A stretch of DNA of 34,986 nucleotides, taken from the UHGV virus genome UHGV-0285842, one strand, 5' to 3'. Below are positions 1,798 through 34,986 of the stretch, piece by piece (the first letter of the stretch is position 1; the number at the start of each line of letters is the position of its first letter). The notes beneath the pieces are model-generated. The model saw nothing but the letters and a program-made list of their open reading frames with translations, searched no databases and had not been told where the DNA came from. The translations under genes were made by a program, and so were the position numbers. This stretch comes from a virus.

Positions 1798-1833
1798 GCC
1801 CCTATCGTTATAATACGCGGTAGGGGCGTTTTT
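1798..1833 (+). terminator. rho-independent terminator after secreted-protein gene
   Basis: Stem GCCCCTA (1798-1804) / TAGGGGC (1821-1827) followed by GTTTTT. Confidence 0.55.
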
Positions 1834-1846
1834 GTTTGGAAATGGT

Positions 1847-3526
1847 ATGAAAACTAAACTGTATTCGTATATTCGCTTCTCGTCTATGCGTCAGAATGAT
1901 GGTTCGAGTTATGAACGACAAATCAGGATGGCGAGAGAGGTTGCGGCAAAGTATGACCTTGAACTGGTAAATGATTATCAGGATCTGGGTGTATCTGCGT
2001 TTAAGGGTGCTAACTCCAAAACAGGGGCGCTATCTCGTTTCCTTGATGCAATTGGTAGATCCGTTCCTGTTGGTAGCTGGCTATTCATTGAAAACTTGGA
2101 CCGCTTATCCCGTGCCGATATTGTCAGTGCGCAGGAGTTATTCCTTTCAATCATCCGTAGGGGGATAACCATTGTTACTGGCATGGATAACAAGATCTAC
2201 TCGCTGGATACTGTTACCGCTAACCCGATGGACCTGATGTTCTCCATCCTTTTATTCATCCGTGGTAATGAGGAAAGCCAGACTAAGCGCAATCGTACTA
2301 ACTCAAGCGCACTGATTAAGATTAAAGCCCATCAAGAAAATCCCCAGAATCCGGCAGTGGCAATCGAGGAAGTTGGAAAGAATATGTGGTGGACGGATAC
2401 CACTTCCGGTTATGTGTTGCCTCATCCTACATACTTCCCTGTTGTTCAGGAGATTGTGGAATTACGGAAGAATGGACGTTCAACCGCCGAAATACTGGAT
2501 CACCTTAACGAGACATATACACCGCCACCAGCGGTTAGTAATAAGAAGCATTCAAAATGGTCACGGGCAATGGTTGAAAGGTTGTTCCATACCCGCGCTT
2601 TGATTGGTATCAAGGAAGTCTCTGTAGATGGTGTTAACTATGAGTTAAAGGATTATTACCCTCGTGTTATTGATGATGCTACGTTCTATCACCTTAAGAA
2701 AAATATTGGTGCTAGAGCATGGAACTTTGGAGACAAGGAAGAAGTTAAACCGATCCCCCTGCTTAGTGGTATTGGCCTATTGAAATGTGATCATTGCGGT
2801 TGCGCTATGGTTAAAGTGAAGGGAACGAACAAACGTTCTGACCAGTATCGTTATACATGTGATGCGACCCGTTCACGTAGACTTGATTGCGAGCATCCAA
2901 ACTGGAGTTTTCGAGGTGATCAATTAGAGAAAGCTGTATTGCAATTGCTGGCTGATAAAATCTGGATTGCTGAGGACAAGGCTAATCCGGTTCCGGCGTT
3001 GAAAGTACAGGTTGATGAAATATCACGCAAGATTGATAACCTGATTGCCCTTTCTGCTATGACAGGAGCAACGAAGGAGCTAGCCGATCAGATTACTACC
3101 CTCAATAGCGAGCGTGAAACACTCTACAATCAGATCAAGATGGCAGAAGAGGAAATGTATTCTGTGGACTCTCAAGGCTGGGAGAAGCTCGCAGAATTTG
3201 ATTTAGAAGATGTTTATAACGAGGAACGACTAAAGGTCCGGTTTAAGATTAAGCAAGCTCTAAAGCGGATCGGGTGTAGCAGGATTGACAGAAATAAAAA
3301 CTTGTTTGTGCTGGAATACATCGATGGAAAGACCCAGAGAGTTGTAATAGAAAATTCAAGAGGAACGAGGAAAGGCCGGATATTCATTGATTTGAAAACT
3401 ATCAATGATAGGCAGATTCTGGAGAGTAACGGGCTTGTTTTGCATCCATGTTTAGACATGCTGACAGATAAGAACTGGAAACCAGAAGAGGAAATACCAG
3501 GTCCATTACAGGAATTTGGAATTTAA
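1847..3526 (+). CDS. large serine recombinase (integrase-type)
   Basis: N-terminal resolvase-type catalytic domain (YIRFSSMRQ, DLGVSAF, LDRLSR), central recombinase domain, Cys-rich zinc-ribbon (CDHCGCAMV...YTCDA...LDCEH) and C-terminal coiled coil. ATG 1847 preferred over the track's TTG at 1832. Confidence 0.85.
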   Translation: MKTKLYSYIRFSSMRQNDGSSYERQIRMAREVAAKYDLELVNDYQDLGVSAFKGANSKTGALSRFLDAIGRSVPVGSWLFIENLDRLSRADIVSAQELFLSIIRRGITIVTGMDNKIYSLDTVTANPMDLMFSILLFIRGNEESQTKRNRTNSSALIKIKAHQENPQNPAVAIEEVGKNMWWTDTTSGYVLPHPTYFPVVQEIVELRKNGRSTAEILDHLNETYTPPPAVSNKKHSKWSRAMVERLFHTRALIGIKEVSVDGVNYELKDYYPRVIDDATFYHLKKNIGARAWNFGDKEEVKPIPLLSGIGLLKCDHCGCAMVKVKGTNKRSDQYRYTCDATRSRRLDCEHPNWSFRGDQLEKAVLQLLADKIWIAEDKANPVPALKVQVDEISRKIDNLIALSAMTGATKELADQITTLNSERETLYNQIKMAEEEMYSVDSQGWEKLAEFDLEDVYNEERLKVRFKIKQALKRIGCSRIDRNKNLFVLEYIDGKTQRVVIENSRGTRKGRIFIDLKTINDRQILESNGLVLHPCLDMLTDKNWKPEEEIPGPLQEFGI

Positions 3527-15753: not shown

Positions 15754-16224
15754 TTAGACTTTCTGGAAAACAGCTTGTTTAACCGGAGCACCATCTACTA
15801 CAAAGGTGAAGGTACGGCCTACTACAGCATCCTCACCACCGGTCATGGTAGTTTTAGACAGGAAGCCGTTATAAGCGATATGTACACCAGATTTTTTCGT
15901 AGCATCGATGTAGTAAGCAATTTTAAGCTGTACGCGCTTACCGTCTTCGGTTGCTTTAATCAGTTTTTCGTGTACTTCGTTACCAGGCATGTAGTTGATC
16001 GAAAGTTCGATATCCGGTACAGACATACGACCAACCAGCTTACGGTTATACGGACCACCGAAGTTAGGAACATCGATAGTAGAACGTTCTACACCAGTTT
16101 CCGGGAAAGCCGCACATTCTGGAATTTCCAGATAGCTTTCACTGTCAAGATCGGTGTTAGTTACTTCTTCATGCAGAAACAGACCAACGAGGCCACCAGA
16201 AAAAATATCAAATTTAGTAGTCAT
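15754..16224 (-). CDS. major tail tube protein (156 aa)
   Basis: Position immediately upstream of the chaperone pair, size and beta-rich composition; AAGGA Shine-Dalgarno; followed by a strong terminator as is common for abundant structural genes. Confidence 0.55.
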   Translation of the reverse strand: MTTKFDIFSGGLVGLFLHEEVTNTDLDSESYLEIPECAAFPETGVERSTIDVPNFGGPYNRKLVGRMSVPDIELSINYMPGNEVHEKLIKATEDGKRVQLKIAYYIDATKKSGVHIAYNGFLSKTTMTGGEDAVVGRTFTFVVDGAPVKQAVFQKV

Positions 16225-17223: not shown

Positions 17224-20200
17224 TTACCCTAATTTAGCTTCAATTGCAGCAAGACGTTCACGAAGAAGTTTATTTTCTTCGCTCATTTCTTGGACCGCTT
17301 TAATTAAAAGCGCGTTCACTGCGGAGTTTGAAATTGTTAAAATTTCTTCTGGGTTATCAAGACCACCAATTTTTGCGGTTTTAACAGCTTCCGGTAATAC
17401 CTCTTGTAAATCCTGTGCGATAATACCAATCTCATGACCTATAACTTCTCGGTCATTAAGAGATTTAACTTTATCGTAGGTTTTAACTTTGAGTTTATTT
17501 ACCTTATCCACCGCATTTTCTTCGTAATCTTCAACATTAATTTTCAGACGACCATCGGAACGAATATAAACATCGTTAAAGTTACCATTACCAGGAGAAT
17601 AGAAAGTACCATCATGATGGAACTCGAATACAGCTTGAGGATGACCAGCCGCTGGCGATGCCTCCGCAGATCCAACACGAATAATAGCTTGCCCCCAATT
17701 TTGAGGAACACGACGCATACCAAAATCGACGGCAGTTGTATACCCTTGATTGGTGATTAAACTTCTTCCTTTAATAATTGGATAATAGCTATCTGGTCCA
17801 ACATAGCCATGATCGACGAATATTGGAGCTTCTAATCCCCATTGATCGCCCCAACCTCCAGATTGGCTAGCAGTCCAACGTTCACCATGAACATAGAATC
17901 GAACGTTATTGACATGAGTCATTTCGACACCTTTTGGACTTAGCGCGATATCACCCGCGTTTGTAATATTGATAGCAGCATTAGTAGCATAGCTATAGAA
18001 CGCTAATCCATTATCAGCACCACCTTTACCGATATACCAGTTGTTATTATCAGCACAAGTACCCAGCAAATATATAGACGAATCACCCGTTTCGGCATTC
18101 ATGACGATTGCGTCAGAACCACGATTAACTTTAAGTTTCCCGAAGAAGGTGTTTTTAATGGTATTATCACCCAATCGTTCAAATTCTGCTAAAAATCCTT
18201 TTGAGTCACGAAGACTTAAAACGTTATTTCGACCTGTATTGCTTGCACCCCAATGGACGAGTTCCATATAGTCCATAGATTGACGAGAACCAGCTTTAAA
18301 GAACAGGTTGTCTTCGAGACGAGTGCTACCATCAATTCCAAGATGCAAACAACGAGCAGTTTCAGTGCCACCTAAATATAATCCACCGTCAGCAAAATTA
18401 TAGCTGAATGGTCTACGAGTATTCCACGGTCCAAATGAATCACCGAGATCTGTGGTAAGAATATGGAAGCCAACGCCATCATTTCTAAAAATTAAGCCAT
18501 AATTGCCACCTTTAACAGCCAAACGAGCATTTTCAGATAATGCAACTTCGCTATTCATTACAATTTTCTGGCCTTTACCGCCAGTAATATGCAATTCACC
18601 ATCTTCAATCAGGTTTATAGAGTTTTGACCGTTATCGTTCCACCAAATAAAATCTTTGGTCGTCAAATCACCAAAACCAAACCAACCATTACGAACATCT
18701 TGACCAGTGCGATAATCCATAAAATTAAAATGGCTTGATTCGTTTGGTCCTCGACGAATATCAATACCAGCATTACCAGTACCACCATCCAATGTTAATT
18801 TCTTGATATGTAACCCGGATGTTGCTGTCAGCAATAATTCCTGATTTGTATCTTCGTATCCAGTAGCAAGACGATATGCGTTATCATCAACTGTCTCATG
18901 CCAGATTGTAGCTGGTGCACAACTACGGAAGCGACGCAACATCTTTTTAGCATTTGTCGGTTGTTCGTTTAAATGCTCAATATCATATTGGCCTTGATGA
19001 TTGCCAGCAAAATTTAACGTCCCACGGTTGCTAAAGTTATTGAACGATGAAATGTTAAGAGCATCAAAAATTTCGTCTGCAACAGGTTTTTCACCACCCA
19101 GATATTCAGGAGTATCCAACAGGTTTAAAGAAACACCACCGGAAGAAACTTGATATTCTGCTAAAACAAATCCTGTATGTGCACCGTAGTAAGCGTAAAG
19201 ATCGTAATTGTCGCCATCGGTTGGAATAGCGCAAAAATGTTGTTCATAATGCCAAATAGTATAATACGCATTGAATACAACACCTTTCGGGCTATTGTTG
19301 CCGCATCGAATCACCAATTCGATAATATTGGCTTGTCCATTATGTCCTACGTTATAACCGTTACCACCAACCAAACGGATCTTAGCCGTGCGACCGTGTT
19401 GTTGTGGCATTGTCAAAGTGCCTAGTTTAAACCAACCACCCTCGATACCAAAATTAAGCGTCTTCTGGAACAGTCGGTCAATTTCTGCTTTCGAATATGC
19501 GCCAATTTCAGCCGGAGTAGGTTTATCGCCTTCATGATACATGCGGTGAGAATATGACAAATTACCTAATTCATCATAGCCGTATGTTCTTACAGTAGCA
19601 TGTGGATTAGACCCATAAGTGAACTCGAAGCCACGAGCATGATTAACACCAGATGGATGCGGAACATGCAAGATCATTGCAATATGACCCGCCAGGTCAT
19701 TCATGCGGAATGCACCAAAGTAATCAAGATTACGCGCATTTGGATCATCAAAATAGTTTGCGGTCTTAGACAGCAAATAACCATCAGTATAAGTGTTTAC
19801 GTGTTTTTTGATGTACTTGCCATCAGCAGATCCATCGGCTGCATCAATACGGCTTTCTAAACGTGCCAGTTCAGAATCAGTGTAAGACTTGTTATTGTCA
19901 ACTTTGCTATGAATTGCTGTATTTTTGGCTTCAACATCACGGGTTAATGCTGCGACGTTATCCGCTGCCTCTTGCTTATTGGCTGCAATCACACCAGTAA
20001 GGTTATTGTAGGTGTCAGTTAACTGATTTTCCGCATAGACTTTATTTGCTGCGATAGTGCGGTCAGTTTCTGCCTTAATCAAATCAACCTTGTCATTGAT
20101 TGCTTTGTCATTGCTTGCGATGGTTGCATCGGTGCGGGATTTAATATCATCAACTTTTTTATTGATGCGGGTGTCCAGTTCCTGAGTTGCTACAGCAGCC

Positions 20201-20631
20201 GCATTTTTATTAGCGTTGATGGTATCCGACAATTCAGCTTTAACACCAGCAAGGTCGGAAGCAGCTTTATTTTTATTGGCCTCGATTGTCGCGTCGGTTT
20301 CGCGTTTAATTACATCAACTTTATTGTTAATTTCTGCGTGATTTGCTGCGATGGTTGCATCAGTAGTTTGTTTAATTTCATCTACTTTAGCGTGAATATT
20401 GCGGTCATTTACTGCAATTGTGCTATCTAGTTCTTGTTTGTTAGCATCAACTTTAGATTCTAGTGCCGCGTGAGTTTCAGGAGAAACAGAGATTTGAACT
20501 ACTTCATGATCTCGGTCTTTGGTAAAAATAACATGGTCTTTAAGGTTGATTGCTACCTCACCGACCTGTAATTGTTCCGGCGTTGGTTTTTTGCCAGAAA
20601 CATTAGTTCGTTTAAATTGGATTGATTGCAT
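17224..20631 (-). CDS. side tail fibre (1135 aa) with C-terminal peptidase S74-type intramolecular chaperone domain
   Basis: N-terminal repeated KVDxIKxxTDATIxAN units, central beta-helix-like Gly/Asn-rich region, C-terminal ~110 aa (SDGRLKINVEDY...LLRERLAAIEAKLG) resembling autoproteolytic chaperone domains of phage fibres and endosialidases. GAGGTGA Shine-Dalgarno before ATG 20631. Confidence 0.8.
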   Translation of the reverse strand: MQSIQFKRTNVSGKKPTPEQLQVGEVAINLKDHVIFTKDRDHEVVQISVSPETHAALESKVDANKQELDSTIAVNDRNIHAKVDEIKQTTDATIAANHAEINNKVDVIKRETDATIEANKNKAASDLAGVKAELSDTINANKNAAAVATQELDTRINKKVDDIKSRTDATIASNDKAINDKVDLIKAETDRTIAANKVYAENQLTDTYNNLTGVIAANKQEAADNVAALTRDVEAKNTAIHSKVDNNKSYTDSELARLESRIDAADGSADGKYIKKHVNTYTDGYLLSKTANYFDDPNARNLDYFGAFRMNDLAGHIAMILHVPHPSGVNHARGFEFTYGSNPHATVRTYGYDELGNLSYSHRMYHEGDKPTPAEIGAYSKAEIDRLFQKTLNFGIEGGWFKLGTLTMPQQHGRTAKIRLVGGNGYNVGHNGQANIIELVIRCGNNSPKGVVFNAYYTIWHYEQHFCAIPTDGDNYDLYAYYGAHTGFVLAEYQVSSGGVSLNLLDTPEYLGGEKPVADEIFDALNISSFNNFSNRGTLNFAGNHQGQYDIEHLNEQPTNAKKMLRRFRSCAPATIWHETVDDNAYRLATGYEDTNQELLLTATSGLHIKKLTLDGGTGNAGIDIRRGPNESSHFNFMDYRTGQDVRNGWFGFGDLTTKDFIWWNDNGQNSINLIEDGELHITGGKGQKIVMNSEVALSENARLAVKGGNYGLIFRNDGVGFHILTTDLGDSFGPWNTRRPFSYNFADGGLYLGGTETARCLHLGIDGSTRLEDNLFFKAGSRQSMDYMELVHWGASNTGRNNVLSLRDSKGFLAEFERLGDNTIKNTFFGKLKVNRGSDAIVMNAETGDSSIYLLGTCADNNNWYIGKGGADNGLAFYSYATNAAINITNAGDIALSPKGVEMTHVNNVRFYVHGERWTASQSGGWGDQWGLEAPIFVDHGYVGPDSYYPIIKGRSLITNQGYTTAVDFGMRRVPQNWGQAIIRVGSAEASPAAGHPQAVFEFHHDGTFYSPGNGNFNDVYIRSDGRLKINVEDYEENAVDKVNKLKVKTYDKVKSLNDREVIGHEIGIIAQDLQEVLPEAVKTAKIGGLDNPEEILTISNSAVNALLIKAVQEMSEENKLLRERLAAIEAKLG
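20040..20420. repeat. imperfect tandem repeats (~48 bp units) in the fibre N-terminal shaft
   Basis: Recurring GCGATGGTTGCATC...TTTAAT-TCATC-ACTTT blocks, at least four copies, encoding the repeated KVDxIK-TDATI peptide motif. Confidence 0.5.
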
Positions 20632-22433: not shown

Positions 22434-24440
22434 TCATTCAGCGGAGATGTGAAGAACTTTCAGAGCTTCCGGCTGAACTACGGTGAAGTCCAGGTCTACC
22501 CAGATACGCGGAACGATAGCAGACTGTGCACGGTAGGTAGTGTCATCCATATCCAGTTCCAGACCACCCCATTCGCCGATCATGATACCGGAGAAGTCAC
22601 CCAGAACGATGTGATCTGCCGGGATAACACCAGAAGTAACTACATCGTAACCAGCCAGTTTGCCGTTTTCGATGATATAACCGGAAACGCCGTTATCTTT
22701 CAGGGTAGATTCCAGTTCAGCAGCAGTTGCACCGCTCATTGCAAACTTGATGGACTGTGCCGGAACGCCAGCGTCGGTCAGTGCTGCAATTTCTTTCAGG
22801 AAGTCTTTGTAGCTAAAAGCGGCTTTCTTAGTAACGCGACCACCGTCTACCAGTTGCTTAACCAGACCTTTCGGACCGCGAGTATTGTCTTTGTCAGACA
22901 GAATCAGTTGTTCCAGTTTGATCCGGACAGCTTTGTTAATGTGATCAGTGATCAGAGTAGCAATATTCGGAACAGTTTTCAGAGACTGACGGCTGATCGG
23001 GTTGCCACCAGCAAACGTCTTAGGAGCCATTTTCACGTTTGCAAATTCAGCTTTGCTTTCCGGTGCAGCACCGTTTTCATCAACGAAACCGAAAGCATCT
23101 ACGCTGGAAGCAGTCATTTTCGGTACAGCAATCGGAGCATTCAGACCAGACAGAACAGTCACACCGAGGCGGCCTAAAACACTCTGAGGCAACAGCATTT
23201 CAACATAGGATTCGGTCAGCAGTTTTTCGTCGGTGATATCAGTCAGAGTAGCTTTGGTGTTACCATCAGCAGCAGCACGCAGAGCAGCAGCCGGAACGAA
23301 TACAGAGCCACCGCGAGCAGCACGACCACGCTGCATTGCAGCACCAGCAGCCATAGCGGAATATTCAGCTTCGTTAGCACCCAGAGCAGCACCATCTACC
23401 AGAGAGCGAATTACGTTGTTCAGGTCAAAAGTTTTTTCCATTTTAGAGTCCTTAATTTGTTGTTCGTTGTTACGTTGAGCAGTAGCGATTTTATTTAGTG
23501 CCTTAGTGCGGAATGCTTCCGGCGTCATATCTTTAACTGCCAATGCGCGTTCTAATTCTTCGTCGTTAATATTTAGCTCGCGTGCAATTTCGCGAATTTC
23601 TAATTCGTCTTCTTCGGAACGTTCAGCCACTTCTTCGATTTTTTCTTCTTCAACCGGAGCAGCTTCACGTTCTTCTTTTACTTCTTCTGCTTCCCGAACA
23701 GTTGAACTATCATCATCAACACTTTCAGGATGTTCAGCGTCTTTTCCGTCTTCGAGATTTTCATCTTCTTTATTCTCTTCAACTTGGCGCTCTTGAGTTT
23801 CTTCAACTTCCGGTTCTTTATTTTCTTCTACCGGAGTTTCTTCAACCTGAGCGGCTTCTTGTTCTTCTTTGATTTCTTCGATTTGTTCTTTAGTCATATC
23901 GCGTTTAGCCTCCAAATTAACTGTGATAGTATTTAGAGAGCGATTTAAACCGACAGAATCATCGGCAGGGACCGTCACAAATGAAATTTCAAAAGGTGCC
24001 CACTTAGTAACAATCAATTGCCCTTTGGCGTAATCGATTTGATATTCTTTAATGTCATAACCGACAGAAATTTTTTCCATCGTACCTTCAATGACTTTAT
24101 TGCGAATATCATTAGCCATAGTTCCATGCTTAGAGAATTTAACCAGAGCACGACCTACGTTATCCGCATCGATTCGAGCGTTACAAACGACACCAATGTG
24201 ATTATCGAAATTATGATTAAACAGCAACGGAGCGTTATTATTCAGACGAGACAGATCAACCGCTTCCGGTGTATGTACCAGAATTTCATCTAATACCACC
24301 ATTTCTTGATTTTGCTCATCCCAGAATTGGCGCTGATAAGGCTGTTCACTGGAGAAAGCAATTTCAAATTCGTATTGATCGTTCTGCCCTTCGTTAATAA
24401 CTCCACCGTAACCGTTAAGATCGCGGCGAAATTTAAGCAT
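22434..24440 (-). CDS. fused prohead protease (HK97 gp4 / S78-like), acidic scaffold segment and HK97-fold major capsid protein (668 aa)
   Basis: N-terminal ~170 aa with protease-like pattern (EFEIAFSS...LLFNHNFDNHIGVV...ISVGYDIKEY), central Glu/Lys coiled-coil low-complexity region, C-terminal ~330 aa capsid-like (SGVIPADHIVLGDFSGIMIGEWGGLELD...). AAGGTGA before ATG 24440. Confidence 0.75.
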   Translation of the reverse strand: MLKFRRDLNGYGGVINEGQNDQYEFEIAFSSEQPYQRQFWDEQNQEMVVLDEILVHTPEAVDLSRLNNNAPLLFNHNFDNHIGVVCNARIDADNVGRALVKFSKHGTMANDIRNKVIEGTMEKISVGYDIKEYQIDYAKGQLIVTKWAPFEISFVTVPADDSVGLNRSLNTITVNLEAKRDMTKEQIEEIKEEQEAAQVEETPVEENKEPEVEETQERQVEENKEDENLEDGKDAEHPESVDDDSSTVREAEEVKEEREAAPVEEEKIEEVAERSEEDELEIREIARELNINDEELERALAVKDMTPEAFRTKALNKIATAQRNNEQQIKDSKMEKTFDLNNVIRSLVDGAALGANEAEYSAMAAGAAMQRGRAARGGSVFVPAAALRAAADGNTKATLTDITDEKLLTESYVEMLLPQSVLGRLGVTVLSGLNAPIAVPKMTASSVDAFGFVDENGAAPESKAEFANVKMAPKTFAGGNPISRQSLKTVPNIATLITDHINKAVRIKLEQLILSDKDNTRGPKGLVKQLVDGGRVTKKAAFSYKDFLKEIAALTDAGVPAQSIKFAMSGATAAELESTLKDNGVSGYIIENGKLAGYDVVTSGVIPADHIVLGDFSGIMIGEWGGLELDMDDTTYRAQSAIVPRIWVDLDFTVVQPEALKVLHISAE

Positions 24441-32935: not shown

Positions 32936-32963
32936 AGCCTCCCTTGTTGCAGCAAAGGAGGCT
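32936..32963 (-). terminator. hairpin with U-tract on the minus strand
   Basis: AGCCTCC (32936-32942) / GGAGGCT (32957-32963); A-run on the plus strand upstream gives a U-run on the minus-strand RNA. Confidence 0.35.
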
Positions 32964-33009
32964 TGAAATGAACAATTAAAACTAACACAGCATTCAGGAG
33001 TATTTATAA

Positions 33010-34005
33010 ATGAAAAATTCTAAGCGCATCACCTTCAACCTGTTTATTAAATCCAACGGCAAACTGAACATTACCGTCATGGAAGGTAAAGCAAGCAAAC
33101 AAGACAAATCCTTTGAAGTAGTATCCGGTAAGACTCTGACCGAAATGCGTCAGAATGCTGGCATCAAAGACGGTGCTGAATGGCAGATCACTAACCGTTT
33201 CGACAAACGTCACGTTAAACCTACACTGGTAGAAGGTGAATCCGTTTATTGCTTCGCTCGTGCTGTTAAAGCCGATGAAACTTACTATCTCGCTGTTGTT
33301 AAAACTGCTTCCGGCTTCCGTGCTGTAATGCATCACAAGAGCAAGCGTAACGAATACGGCGTAGAGACCCAGGAAGTTGCTAAACGCTTCCGTACTGTTG
33401 CCACCGAATCCACTGTAAAAGATGTTTCTGGTACTGTTAACACCACTAAAGGCGGTTCCTTCTACAACCACGCATTACAGGTTACTTCCTCCTTCTTCTG
33501 CAAAAAAGAAGCACAGAAAGAAGTTGCTCCGGTAGTAGTTGAAGAAGTTAAAGAAGAAGTTGCAGTGGTTGAATCTTCCGAAGTTGAAGCACTGAAAGCA
33601 CGCATTGCTGAACTGGAAGCTGAAAACGCATCTCTGAAAGCTGAACTGGCAGCACAGGAAACCACTTTCGAAGTAGCAGCGGTTGAAGTTGAAGCAGTTG
33701 AAGAAAAATCCATTGATGAAGAACTGGAAGAACTCCTTAACTATCGCTGGGGTGTTGTTGCAGAAGTAGAACAAGAAGTTGCTCCGGTAGTTGTTCCGGT
33801 TGAAGTTGAAAAAGAATCCGCACCTGTTACTAACTTTGAATCCCTGCGCAATAACTTTATGGCTAAATTCAAAACCACTTGGGAAGATACCGAAGAAGAA
33901 CAAGAAGAGATTGAAGTAAACGAAGACGAGATCCGCGAAGCACAGATGGCACTGCATGACGCGATCTATGACACCAACTACAGCGCCTACGCACACGCAG
34001 CTTAA
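33010..34005 (+). CDS. acidic repeat protein (331 aa): N-terminal globular domain, Glu/Val/Ala-rich repeats and coiled coil
   Basis: CAGGAG Shine-Dalgarno before ATG 33010; codon choice (CGT, CTG, GGT, GAA, AAA, ACC) looks host-optimised compared with neighbours; internal EVAPVVV repeats and ALKARIAELEAENASLKAELAAQE heptads. Confidence 0.65.
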   Translation: MKNSKRITFNLFIKSNGKLNITVMEGKASKQDKSFEVVSGKTLTEMRQNAGIKDGAEWQITNRFDKRHVKPTLVEGESVYCFARAVKADETYYLAVVKTASGFRAVMHHKSKRNEYGVETQEVAKRFRTVATESTVKDVSGTVNTTKGGSFYNHALQVTSSFFCKKEAQKEVAPVVVEEVKEEVAVVESSEVEALKARIAELEAENASLKAELAAQETTFEVAAVEVEAVEEKSIDEELEELLNYRWGVVAEVEQEVAPVVVPVEVEKESAPVTNFESLRNNFMAKFKTTWEDTEEEQEEIEVNEDEIREAQMALHDAIYDTNYSAYAHAA

Positions 34006-34020
34006 TAGAGAGGTAATTCT

Positions 34021-34263
34021 ATGATTAATCAAAACAAAGAATTTCTGGGTAATCTGATGTTAGAAATTACCAAAATGAAAGAAAGAATGGTAGCGATGGA
34101 ATCAGAGATTAAAACACTTAAAGCTGATAATAAGGCGTTGAGAAAGTCCTTAAAGCTGATTGATGAGACTAATGCGGTTATGATGGATCATGTATTCCCT
34201 GAGTGGCGAAATGAAACTAAACCTACACAACATAAGAAACTTACACTTCGAATTGTTGCATAA
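34021..34263 (+). CDS. small coiled-coil protein (80 aa)
   Basis: AGAGAGGTAA before ATG 34021; heptad-rich; followed by a hairpin at 34269-34286. Confidence 0.55.
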   Translation: MINQNKEFLGNLMLEITKMKERMVAMESEIKTLKADNKALRKSLKLIDETNAVMMDHVFPEWRNETKPTQHKKLTLRIVA

Positions 34264-34286
34264 AAAAAGGGACTCCGAAGAGTCCC
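34262..34286. terminator. hairpin terminator (GGGACTC-CGAA-GAGTCCC) flanked by an A-run
   Basis: 7-bp stem; A7 upstream on the plus strand gives a U-tract for leftward transcripts; weaker T-rich tract downstream for rightward ones. Confidence 0.5.
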
Positions 34287-34363
34287 TAGTAAGTTTAGGT
34301 TAGGTTTGCACAACAAAGATGAGGTTATAATGAACATAATGCTACATTATTCTTTAAAGCCAG

Positions 34364-34388
34364 AAAAATAACCGCCCCGAAGGGCGGG
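34364..34388 (-). terminator. intrinsic terminator (UUCG-loop hairpin plus U-tract) for leftward transcripts
   Basis: Minus-strand RNA CCGCCC-UUCG-GGGCGG followed by UUAUUUUU. Confidence 0.55.
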
Positions 34389-34546
34389 AGGATTAATACT
34401 CAATCTATACTTGTTATGTTTTTATGTTGTATAGATCCTGACTATGAAAACACTGTACTGGAAGTGTGTTTTTATGGCTTTTAATCGGGAATCCTCAAAG
34501 AAGATCCCCTGTTAATAACCATAAGGAGAAAAGGCAGATTACACTA

Positions 34547-34720
34547 TTATTTAGTATCCTTTTTACAGCAACTAAAAAGAATAAACAAAAAGAAGCATAC
34601 CCAGCCGTAAGGCGTACCGATTAGAAATTTGAAAAACACCACCAGCGATATAAAAATCAATTTAATGCCAGCGACGATAGTCAAAAACAGCAGAGTAGCA
34701 AAGTAGACAAAAAGATCCAT
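34547..34720 (-). CDS. small hydrophobic membrane protein (57 aa)
   Basis: AGAGGAT Shine-Dalgarno before ATG 34720; sequence MDLFVYFATLLFLTIVAGIKLIFISLVVFFKFLIGTPYGWVCFFLFILFSCCKKDTK predicts two transmembrane segments; below the ORF-track length cut-off. Confidence 0.45.
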   Translation of the reverse strand: MDLFVYFATLLFLTIVAGIKLIFISLVVFFKFLIGTPYGWVCFFLFILFSCCKKDTK

Positions 34721-34773
34721 AGATAATCCTCTTTGAAAACGACCATCATCTATAGTTCAATTCATCGATTTAA

Positions 34774-34875
34774 TTAATGATACTTGAAAGCGTTACACAA
34801 AGTAGAAATGCCAATATGTGCCAGTGAATATACGATAGTTAATCCTACAGCCAGATAAATCAAAAATTCAACCAT
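34774..34875 (-). CDS. small membrane protein (33 aa)
   Basis: GAGGAT Shine-Dalgarno before ATG 34875 (track ORF 34774-34986 runs to the window edge without a ribosome-binding site); hydrophobic core FLIYLAVGLTIVYSLAHIGI. Confidence 0.35.
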   Translation of the reverse strand: MVEFLIYLAVGLTIVYSLAHIGISTLCNAFKYH

Positions 34876-34905
34876 AGGTAAATCCTCAAATAAGAAAAAG
34901 GTTAG

Positions 34906-34924
34906 CGGGGGATGTTCTCCCCCG
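34906..34924 (-). terminator. hairpin (CGGGGGA / TCCCCCG) with U-rich tail on the minus strand
   Basis: 7-bp stem; the minus-strand RNA continues CUAACCUUUUUCUU just before the 34875 gene ribosome-binding site. Confidence 0.4.
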
Positions 34925-34986
34925 TAGACGTTGACCAGCTCAACATCCTTCACGTATATATTTAGTATAGAAATTTTAAGACACAT

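Follow-up and report, generated by a model that had tools for sequence, protein, structure and literature searches.

Lambdoid O proteins exchange their N- and C-terminal modules independently, and the O protein of phage lambda is unstable through ClpXP. Some Rep proteins of iteron plasmids are remodelled by Clp or DnaK chaperones. At the lambda ori, four iterons are bound by the amino-terminal half of O and an AT-rich segment adjoins them (PMC4488673). Here we analyse a 34,986-nucleotide stretch of viral DNA, UHGV virus genome UHGV-0285842 (hereafter the window), which covers most of a ~37-kb Escherichia coli prophage whose gene set is of siphovirus type according to Pfam and PHROGs. One of its genes (hereafter the target gene) encodes a 331-amino-acid (aa) protein that is best read, from comparison of related loci, as binding iterons sequence-specifically in a so far uncharacterised family of enterobacterial prophages, which are temperate and of siphovirus type. 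We give roughly even odds (about 0.5) to the reading that this protein acts as an origin-binding replication initiator following a lambda-O-like logic with no homology to O.

The likeness to lambda O lies in the layout. The target product would, like O, be a ~300-aa early protein whose amino-terminal half sets the specificity for phased iterons lying by an AT-rich segment, and related phages swap its N-terminal (iteron) module and its C-terminal (partner) module independently of each other. Unlike O, it has no Phage_rep_O or winged-helix N-domain membership and no sequence or predicted-fold relationship to that protein; its iterons are direct 9-12-bp motifs located 0.9 kb upstream of the gene, whereas those of lambda are 19-bp palindromes inside the gene; no P-like or DnaB-like gene follows it; and it carries long acidic linkers, a coiled coil and an extreme codon adaptation. 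With the Rep proteins of iteron plasmids (RepA, pi, TrfA) the system shares direct repeats, a ~22-bp phasing, an AT-rich region beside them and a specificity that co-evolves with the iterons. However, the target product has no Rep_3 or winged-helix signature, its N-domain being predicted to be beta-rich with no winged-helix match; its module was not found on plasmids; and plasmid Reps are made in limiting rather than massive amounts.

The repeats lie in a conserved 1.2-kb non-coding region between the leftward genes and the rightward operon that includes the target gene, and comprise the following elements.

32025..32146, plus strand: iteron array, 7 direct copies of (T)AGTGTAGG(TTT) on one strand (repeat search, shuffles)
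32141..32330, no strand assigned: AT-rich tract beside the array, with two copies of CAAAAATTTTGATAG (repeat family D12, AT profile); a candidate DNA-unwinding region

The motif of the window array is TAGTGTAGG, with a start-to-start spacing of mostly 11 or 22 bp, and this array is the sole cluster of the motif in the window (8 matches against 1.33 expected; none of 100 shuffles reached 8). The ~850 bp that separate it from the target gene hold the promoter, the operators and the p60 gene. AT content is 0.77 in the first 60 bp of the tract, and an AT peak of 0.75-0.83 directly follows the array in all five of the locus types examined. The iterons of all types are direct, on one strand and in a single cluster, with a spacing of predominantly 11 or 21-23 bp.

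The connection between protein and array emerges from their covariation. In strain 23CRST001, the promoter, the operators, the p60 gene and the hairpin that follows it are ~96% identical to the window, and replacement is confined to two segments that do not adjoin: the array now reads TTCAGGGGCAA, and in the target product the first ~160 aa give way to a sequence beginning MLFSANFF, while the acidic and C-terminal parts are still recognisably related. In the 17 loci taken from E. coli and Logan, the N-domain is of type A, A', B, C or D, and these types correspond strictly one-to-one to TAGTGTAGG, TAGTGCAGG, TTCAGGGGCAA, GGAATCTTGGGG and ACGGGGACGGGG, respectively. Adding IMG/VR contigs gave a wider set of 39 non-identical loci, in which all 15 type-A loci carry 6-9 A repeats and 0-1 B repeats, and all 23 type-B loci carry 6-9 B repeats and 0-2 A-like repeats. 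Other genera were reached through p60 homologues. In Providencia, the N-domain is A-like, the C-terminus differs, and the array is still TAGTGTAGGT (6 copies); Proteus pairs a new N-domain, type E, with 8 copies of GCTAGGGATAT; Salmonella has both type A' with 6 copies of TAGTGCAGG and a B-like type with 5 copies of TTCAGGGGCAA; and Edwardsiella has a further N-domain and a different repeat, located further upstream. In total, at least 7 N-domain types of ~165 aa were found, and the array changes with the type one-to-one in all of the ~45 loci from Escherichia, Salmonella, Providencia, Proteus and Edwardsiella.

Everything around these two elements reshuffles. Independent exchange is seen in p60, in the ~850 bp that lie between the array and the target gene, and in p150 on the other side. 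One locus (L007) is of type B although its p60 and p150 match those of the window at 97-99% identity, and another (L001) is of type A with a 65%-identical p150. In two chimeric loci (L008 and L100), N-domain B is joined to the C-terminus found in L009 and the B repeats are kept, which shows that the repeats follow the N-domain and not the C-terminus. Since flanks and C-terminus reshuffle independently, the association of N-domain and array is not mere linkage. p60 and p150 were also considered as the repeat-binding factor and rejected, as neither tracks the repeat type. Consequently, the N-domain very probably recognises the repeat array. Profile searches found types A, E and D to be mutually homologous, as are types B and F, so the N-domain appears to have diversified in specificity. 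The predicted assignment of this domain to its DNA motif, in seven natural variants, is a new comparative result.

The target product is built of three parts.

33010..34005, plus strand: target gene, 331 aa, stop included (open reading frame (ORF) call; same coding sequence (CDS) with the same start in RefSeq, L001)
33010..33504, plus strand: N-terminal domain, aa 1-165, basic, predicted beta-rich (charge, AlphaFold, covariation with iteron type)
33505..33831, plus strand: acidic Glu/Val/Ala/Pro-rich linker region, aa 166-274 (repeats, AlphaFold, charge)
33832..34002, plus strand: C-terminal helical module, aa 275-331, ending in ..NYSAYAHAA (homologue comparison)

Translation starts at an ATG with AGGAG 9 nt 5' of it, a good ribosome-binding site. 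The charge of the protein is sharply divided, with an isoelectric point (pI) of 9.8 and a net charge of +12 for aa 1-165 as against a pI of 4.1 and a net charge of -32 for aa 166-331, and this layout recurs in all types (N-domains mostly basic, pI 7.7-10.1; C-terminal halves acidic). A sequence-only reading of this DNA had described a ~160-aa N-domain that it did not recognise, followed by EVAPVVV-containing Glu/Val/Ala repeats and a coiled coil, and each of these elements was recovered. EVAPVVV occurs twice, at aa 171-177 (33520-33540) and aa 256-262 (33775-33795), inside Glu/Val/Ala-rich direct DNA repeats, and AlphaFold predicts a long coiled-coil helix at aa 190-226 (33577-33687). The motif IDEELEELLNYRWG is conserved in the linker region, the length of which varies among 122 full-length homologues. 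A basic nucleic-acid-binding core followed by an acidic, partner-contacting C-terminal tail in a highly expressed early protein recalls T7 gp2.5 and T4 gp32; no OB-fold core of the kind found in those single-stranded DNA-binding proteins was detected in the target product.

No known family or fold accounts for the N-domain. AlphaFold, run on a 14-sequence alignment, gave a model with a mean predicted local distance difference test (pLDDT) score of 55.6 that is confident for aa ~30-110 only (pLDDT 77-86), where it shows a beta-beta-beta-alpha-alpha-beta-beta-beta unit; C-terminal helices were also predicted, and the single-sequence model (pLDDT 44) was unusable. Searches of Pfam, PHROGs and NCBIfam with the target product returned coiled-coil noise only, PDB sequences gave no match, and every Foldseek match of the model in BFVD and the PDB had E >= 0.05. 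Exhaustive comparison of aa 1-170 with 1.84 billion representative proteins by phmmer found only three real clusters, plus two matches that are repeat-protein artefacts, and a profile search of a 5.8-billion-protein set yielded only fragments and close relatives of the target product. The protein is annotated as hypothetical in every genome inspected and belongs to no curated family.

The C-terminal module is exchangeable and reshuffles independently of the N-domain, and its extreme end is conserved. Homologues almost always terminate in ..NYSAYAYAA, and 120 of the 122 full-length ones end in -AA, mostly as ..YAYAA. The -AA end is found in four of five E. coli and Salmonella C-terminal types and in the Providencia type, despite differing preceding sequences, and a 46%-identical protein with an unrelated C-terminal region still ends in ..RRAA. 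As a sequence pattern, the non-polar C-terminus with its conserved -AA end corresponds to the ssrA-like C-motif 1. Both -AA and ..LVA ends resemble the ssrA-type tails recognised by ClpX. This pattern suggests that the target product has a high flux and undergoes turnover or remodelling by unfoldases of the ClpX type; by analogy, it may share the instability of lambda O. The tail (33970-34002) also shows an (AY)n length polymorphism among homologues P0001-P0120, from ..SAYAYAA up to ..AYAYAYAYAYAA, and the window copy carries a rare Y-to-H change (..AYAHAA).

The target gene is also remarkable for its codon usage, which the sequence-only reading had placed much closer to that of highly expressed host genes than to that of its more AT-rich neighbours, with high expression or recent acquisition as the proposed causes. 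Using weights from 30 E. coli K-12 ribosomal-protein, tufA, fusA and rpoA genes (L002), the codon adaptation index (CAI) of the target gene is 0.756, the top value in the window, compared with a mean of 0.684 (range 0.55-0.84) for the reference genes themselves and 0.24-0.54 for weakly expressed K-12 genes. All other ORFs of the window score 0.20-0.70 and the neighbours of the target gene 0.23-0.60, the two immediate ones, p60 and the downstream 80-aa gene, reaching only 0.29 and 0.34. Because AT pressure likewise favours the optimal codons of Glu, Val, Ala and Lys, the target protein was simulated with the pooled synonymous codon usage of the phage itself; the expected CAI was then 0.498 +/- 0.024 (observed z = +10.7), which rules out inflation of the index by richness in these residues. 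Only the major tail protein gene (CAI 0.700, z 6.7) and the protease-capsid fusion gene (0.619, z 10.0) are comparable. All parts of the gene contribute (aa 2-165, 0.744, z 7.4; aa 166-274, 0.794, z 6.6; aa 275-331, 0.720, z 3.1); 11 of its 15 Leu codons are CTG, Arg is encoded by CGT or CGC only and Gly by GGT or GGC only.

The GC content is 44% in the target gene against 33-35% in its neighbours, as the sequence-only reading had anticipated. Its base composition (GC 0.444; 0.387 at third codon positions, GC3) is nevertheless phage-like and unlike that of E. coli. Orthologues of 77% and 46% identity have CAI values of 0.765 and 0.666, each the highest of its own locus, non-homologous proteins at the equivalent position score 0.63-0.73, and a raised CAI at this position (0.63-0.77) is kept in every N-domain type and divergent relative. 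Phage-like composition and a CAI conserved at the same gene position across genera thus reflect strong selection on translation rather than recent import from the host, and the idea of a recent acquisition had to be abandoned. The codon adaptation is consistent with very high expression, the abundance of the protein being what we infer from it, and the searches returned no known structural or housekeeping homologue.

Taken together, these features would fit the following mechanism. The basic N-terminal ~165 aa would read the 9-12-bp motif in its 5-9 phased copies 0.9 kb upstream, beside the AT-rich tract; the central coiled coil would multimerise the protein on the array; and the acidic linkers with the exchangeable C-terminal module would make contact with a partner, which could be a host factor or the small protein encoded downstream. 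The resulting assembly would most likely be the phage origin complex. The target product would be translated at the level of a structural protein, and the ..AA tail on it and ..LVA on its partner would direct turnover or remodelling of a ClpX type. An initiator is favoured by the origin-like layout of the array, together with a separate small terminase (TerS, see below) and the fact that Pfam and PHROGs scans recognised no other replication gene in the ~37-kb prophage.

Several observations weigh against an initiator. No helicase, loader or primase gene was found near the target gene, and the product has no homology or fold similarity to any initiator family, in a model whose confidence is moderate at best (mean pLDDT 55.6). 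Strong DnaA boxes or IHF sites were absent near the array in the six loci inspected, with only weak, one-mismatch DnaA-box matches and, in one of the six, a single IHF core match. The putative 80-aa partner is missing from type-B phages, its gene being absent or replaced by larger ones in other lineages. Failure to find the module on plasmids leaves it with no independent sign of autonomous replication. Many of the type-A and type-B loci are closely related, so that truly independent events are far fewer than loci, and we infer binding of the array from the covariation only. As far as we know, initiator genes do not usually rank with the most codon-adapted genes of a phage, and a CAI exceeding that of the capsid gene is easier to reconcile with a DNA-coating or architectural protein needed in stoichiometric amounts. 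This codon adaptation, unusual for an initiator, keeps two rival explanations alive.

According to the first of these, the target product would be an architectural, genome-coating protein that nucleates at the array and spreads or oligomerises on phage DNA, in the manner of phi29 p6 or ParB; instead of being a classical initiator, it would organise this DNA for replication, transcription switching or packaging. A conserved CAI above those of the capsid and major tail genes is what a stoichiometric need would leave, the coiled coil and the long acidic disordered segments suit a higher-order assembly, and the covariation supplies a specific nucleation site. The p6 protein of phi29 is a very abundant early protein that binds DNA, nucleating at replication origins, and activates initiation, and a p6-like abundance would explain the high codon adaptation of the target gene. 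However, p6 is ~100 aa long, reads DNA bendability rather than a strict motif, serves protein-primed replication and has no homology to the target product, which resembles neither it nor ParB, HU/IHF and H-NS-like proteins in sequence or fold. There is also no NTPase partner, and a strict specificity maintained across seven types points to a few specific sites as the functional target. On balance we regard a genome-coating role as unlikely.

Slightly less probable again is a transcription regulator of the divergent early promoters, for which the array would serve as operator or enhancer, e.g., an autoregulator or a component of a lysis-lysogeny switch. Two elements of the control region bear on this possibility.

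32343..32371, plus strand: near-consensus sigma-70 promoter TTGACA-17-TATACT (sequence match), its -35 hexamer inside the palindrome TTGACAACTGTCAA; probably the promoter of the rightward operon
32509-32528 and 32594-32613, with a degenerate copy at 32491 (span 32491..32613, leader), plus strand: operator-like palindromes CACTG-N10-CAGTG (repeat family D5)

The array lies ~200 bp upstream of the promoter, between the divergent operons, and iteron-binding proteins commonly autoregulate. Yet separate operators are already in place between the promoter and the genes, where they remain unchanged across N-domain types; 5-9 phased direct repeats followed by an AT-rich tract are origin-like rather than operator-like; and regulators are rarely the most codon-adapted genes.

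The sequence-only reading had suggested a link to DNA and an early gene as possibilities, and both points hold: the predicted binding domain covaries one-to-one with the array, and the rightward operon that contains the gene is of early type and follows a near-consensus promoter and operator-like palindromes. Its other suggestion, an acidic DNA mimic or host-takeover protein acting on the host nucleoid or defence in the manner of Ocr or ArdA, is highly improbable. A strongly acidic C-terminal half and an early, highly codon-adapted gene, as T7 gene 0.3 also is, speak for it, but the protein is not acidic along its whole length as those mimics are, it has no similarity to known mimics, and the same N-domain/repeat pair occurs in both Escherichia and Providencia. 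The basic N-domain varies with an array in the control region of the phage itself and not with the host, so the target is expected to be phage DNA rather than a host component.

Equally remote is a structural or assembly protein (a scaffold, a decoration protein, or a small terminase reading the packaging site), for although a high CAI is typical of virion proteins, the layout of DNA-binding N-domain, coiled coil and C-terminal partner region resembles small terminases and a below-threshold Phage_scaffold match was obtained (E 0.16 and 12.4 bits, the cut-off being 35), the gene belongs to the early region, is encoded on the strand opposite to that of the virion genes, has neither the family match nor the head-gene location of a scaffold, and coexists with a capsid already fused to its protease by a long linker and with a separate TerS at the prophage end.

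L001 17480-18034, minus strand, beyond the right end of the window: small terminase TerS, 184 aa (phrog_57)

That the target product is itself TerS was rejected on this account, since it is this different 184-aa protein that matches phrog_57, terminase small subunit, with E 1.6e-10; the TerS candidate of Edwardsiella gives a faint Phage_Nu1 match. TerS lies ~6 kb from the large terminase with the whole early region between them, which is an unusual arrangement.

Returning to the initiator reading, a broader proposal can be made, if only tentatively: the target product may represent a new class of phage origin or organiser protein, in which a beta-rich specific DNA-binding domain with at least 7 iteron specificities is fused to a coiled coil and disordered acidic arms and combined with capsid-level synthesis and continuous turnover through an ssrA-like tail, forming a large dynamic assembly on the iterons and taking over the host replisome with no helicase, loader, primase or polymerase of its own.

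The rightward operon consists of p60, the target gene and the 80-aa gene, and diverges from a leftward operon made up of p150, the 110-aa gene and Rha/Ant. Their remaining features are listed here.

32714..32893, plus strand: p60, first gene of the rightward operon, 59 aa, helix-turn-helix-like by eye, not tracking the iteron type
32935..32964, no strand assigned: conserved hairpin with a 12-bp stem between p60 and the target gene, T-run on the minus strand only
34021..34263, plus strand: 80-aa coiled-coil protein ending in ..LRIVA, downstream of the target gene (ORF call)
34268..34287, no strand assigned: terminal hairpin of the three-gene operon, its T-run lying on the minus side
31001-31480 and 30548-30880, minus strand: p150 (159 aa, acidic tail) and the 110-aa gene, no family match for either

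Also present in the control region (32343-32680) are CTCTTTAGCAATTCGTGCTCC, a block that does not vary, and, immediately upstream of p60, a hairpin resembling a terminator (32658-32680). Both the control region and the p60 type differ in one sub-lineage (L013-L018). Because its T-run is on the minus strand only, the hairpin at 32935-32964 is not a plus-strand terminator and would rather stop antisense transcription. It is present in all lineages, the plus-strand 3' arm being AAGGAGG, and within 5-8 nt of that sequence every lineage has a mini-ORF of 2-4 codons that differs in sequence each time (MNN*, MKH*, MKNT*, MK*). The first two genes of the leftward operon have CAI values of 0.58 (31001-31480, z 4.4) and 0.60 (30548-30880, z 3.3).

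Upstream of the iterons lies a structured element (31770-31905, plus strand) in which a long-range stem, GCGAAGCG/CGCTTCGC, surrounds a variable segment and is followed by a hairpin, ACGGCTACGCCGT, and a T-run that score as a terminator on the plus strand. Different lineages share this element, and its terminal hairpin changes compensatorily in type-B loci; RNAalifold on 5 sequences gave weak support. Rfam returned no match in 28000-34986, this element included, and a tRNA scan of the window found none. The structured element could represent a small RNA or a transcript close to the origin.

Downstream of the target gene, the 80-aa protein is a possible partner of the target product. The larger proteins that replace it (L009 3878-4738, L011 3898-4839, L003 11035-11445) have an N-domain of their own of ~150-200 aa, beta-rich by eye, and a coiled coil, and could be a second, paralogous-looking DNA-binding module. 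The downstream protein ends in ..LR(L/I)V(A/G) in four lineages, the large L009 protein included. None of the downstream proteins matched a known family.

Outside the early region, the following genes were recognised in the window by Pfam and PHROGs.

1832-3526: large serine recombinase
15754-16224: major tail protein (phrog_158)
17224-20631, minus strand: T4-gp37-like fibre
22434-24440, minus strand: fusion of prohead protease and HK97-type capsid
Elsewhere in the window: endolysin, lambda-J-type tail tip and tape measure protein
Elsewhere in the window: lambda-type portal, gpA-type large terminase and Rha/Ant-like regulator

The prohead protease (S78) and the HK97-type major capsid protein form a single 668-aa ORF, with a ~250-aa linker between them that probably acts as a scaffold. 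The fibre protein also has an S74 chaperone domain, and the 3' part of its gene (window 17224-19035) shares 96.6% DNA identity across 1.8 kb with the gene for the distal long-tail-fibre subunit (gp37 type) of KFS-EC, a virulent T4-like phage. This suggests that two very dissimilar phages have recently traded a receptor-binding module.

The 2-kb region around the target gene is present in 63 of 5426 complete E. coli genomes (~1%), chromosomal in every case, and the prophage lineage also occurs in Salmonella, Shigella, Providencia, Proteus and Edwardsiella. A truncated hicB gene lies at the prophage end in strain 2014EL-1346-6, and in other strains the prophage is inserted in ycdX. In E. coli ETEC1739 (L012 2765-3761) the target gene is split into two CDS, probably through an inactivating mutation in a resident prophage. 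No close isolated phage was found, the best match of the portal having 36.7% identity. Megablast of the target locus against phage and plasmid records, tblastn of N-domain types A, B and D against 50,697 phage records, and tblastn of type A against 72,556 plasmids gave no match; a scan of GTDB species representatives for the target found nothing, and a literature search on this prophage through its integration sites retrieved nothing relevant. The cargo at the right end of the prophage varies with the host: an AbiTii-domain protein in Providencia (L112 7141-8043) and a reverse-transcriptase-TIR protein in Edwardsiella (L114 8413-10044), both with domains typical of defence genes, and an LprI-family protein in E. 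coli (L001 18393-19172).

The seven natural domain-motif variants provide material for understanding how a new DNA-binding fold reads sequence, and for orthogonal origin/initiator pairs. The combination of sequence specificity with codon adaptation at the level of structural proteins would need a new explanation. If the replication role is true, these prophages would carry a minimal phage replicon with no recognisable helicase-recruitment gene.

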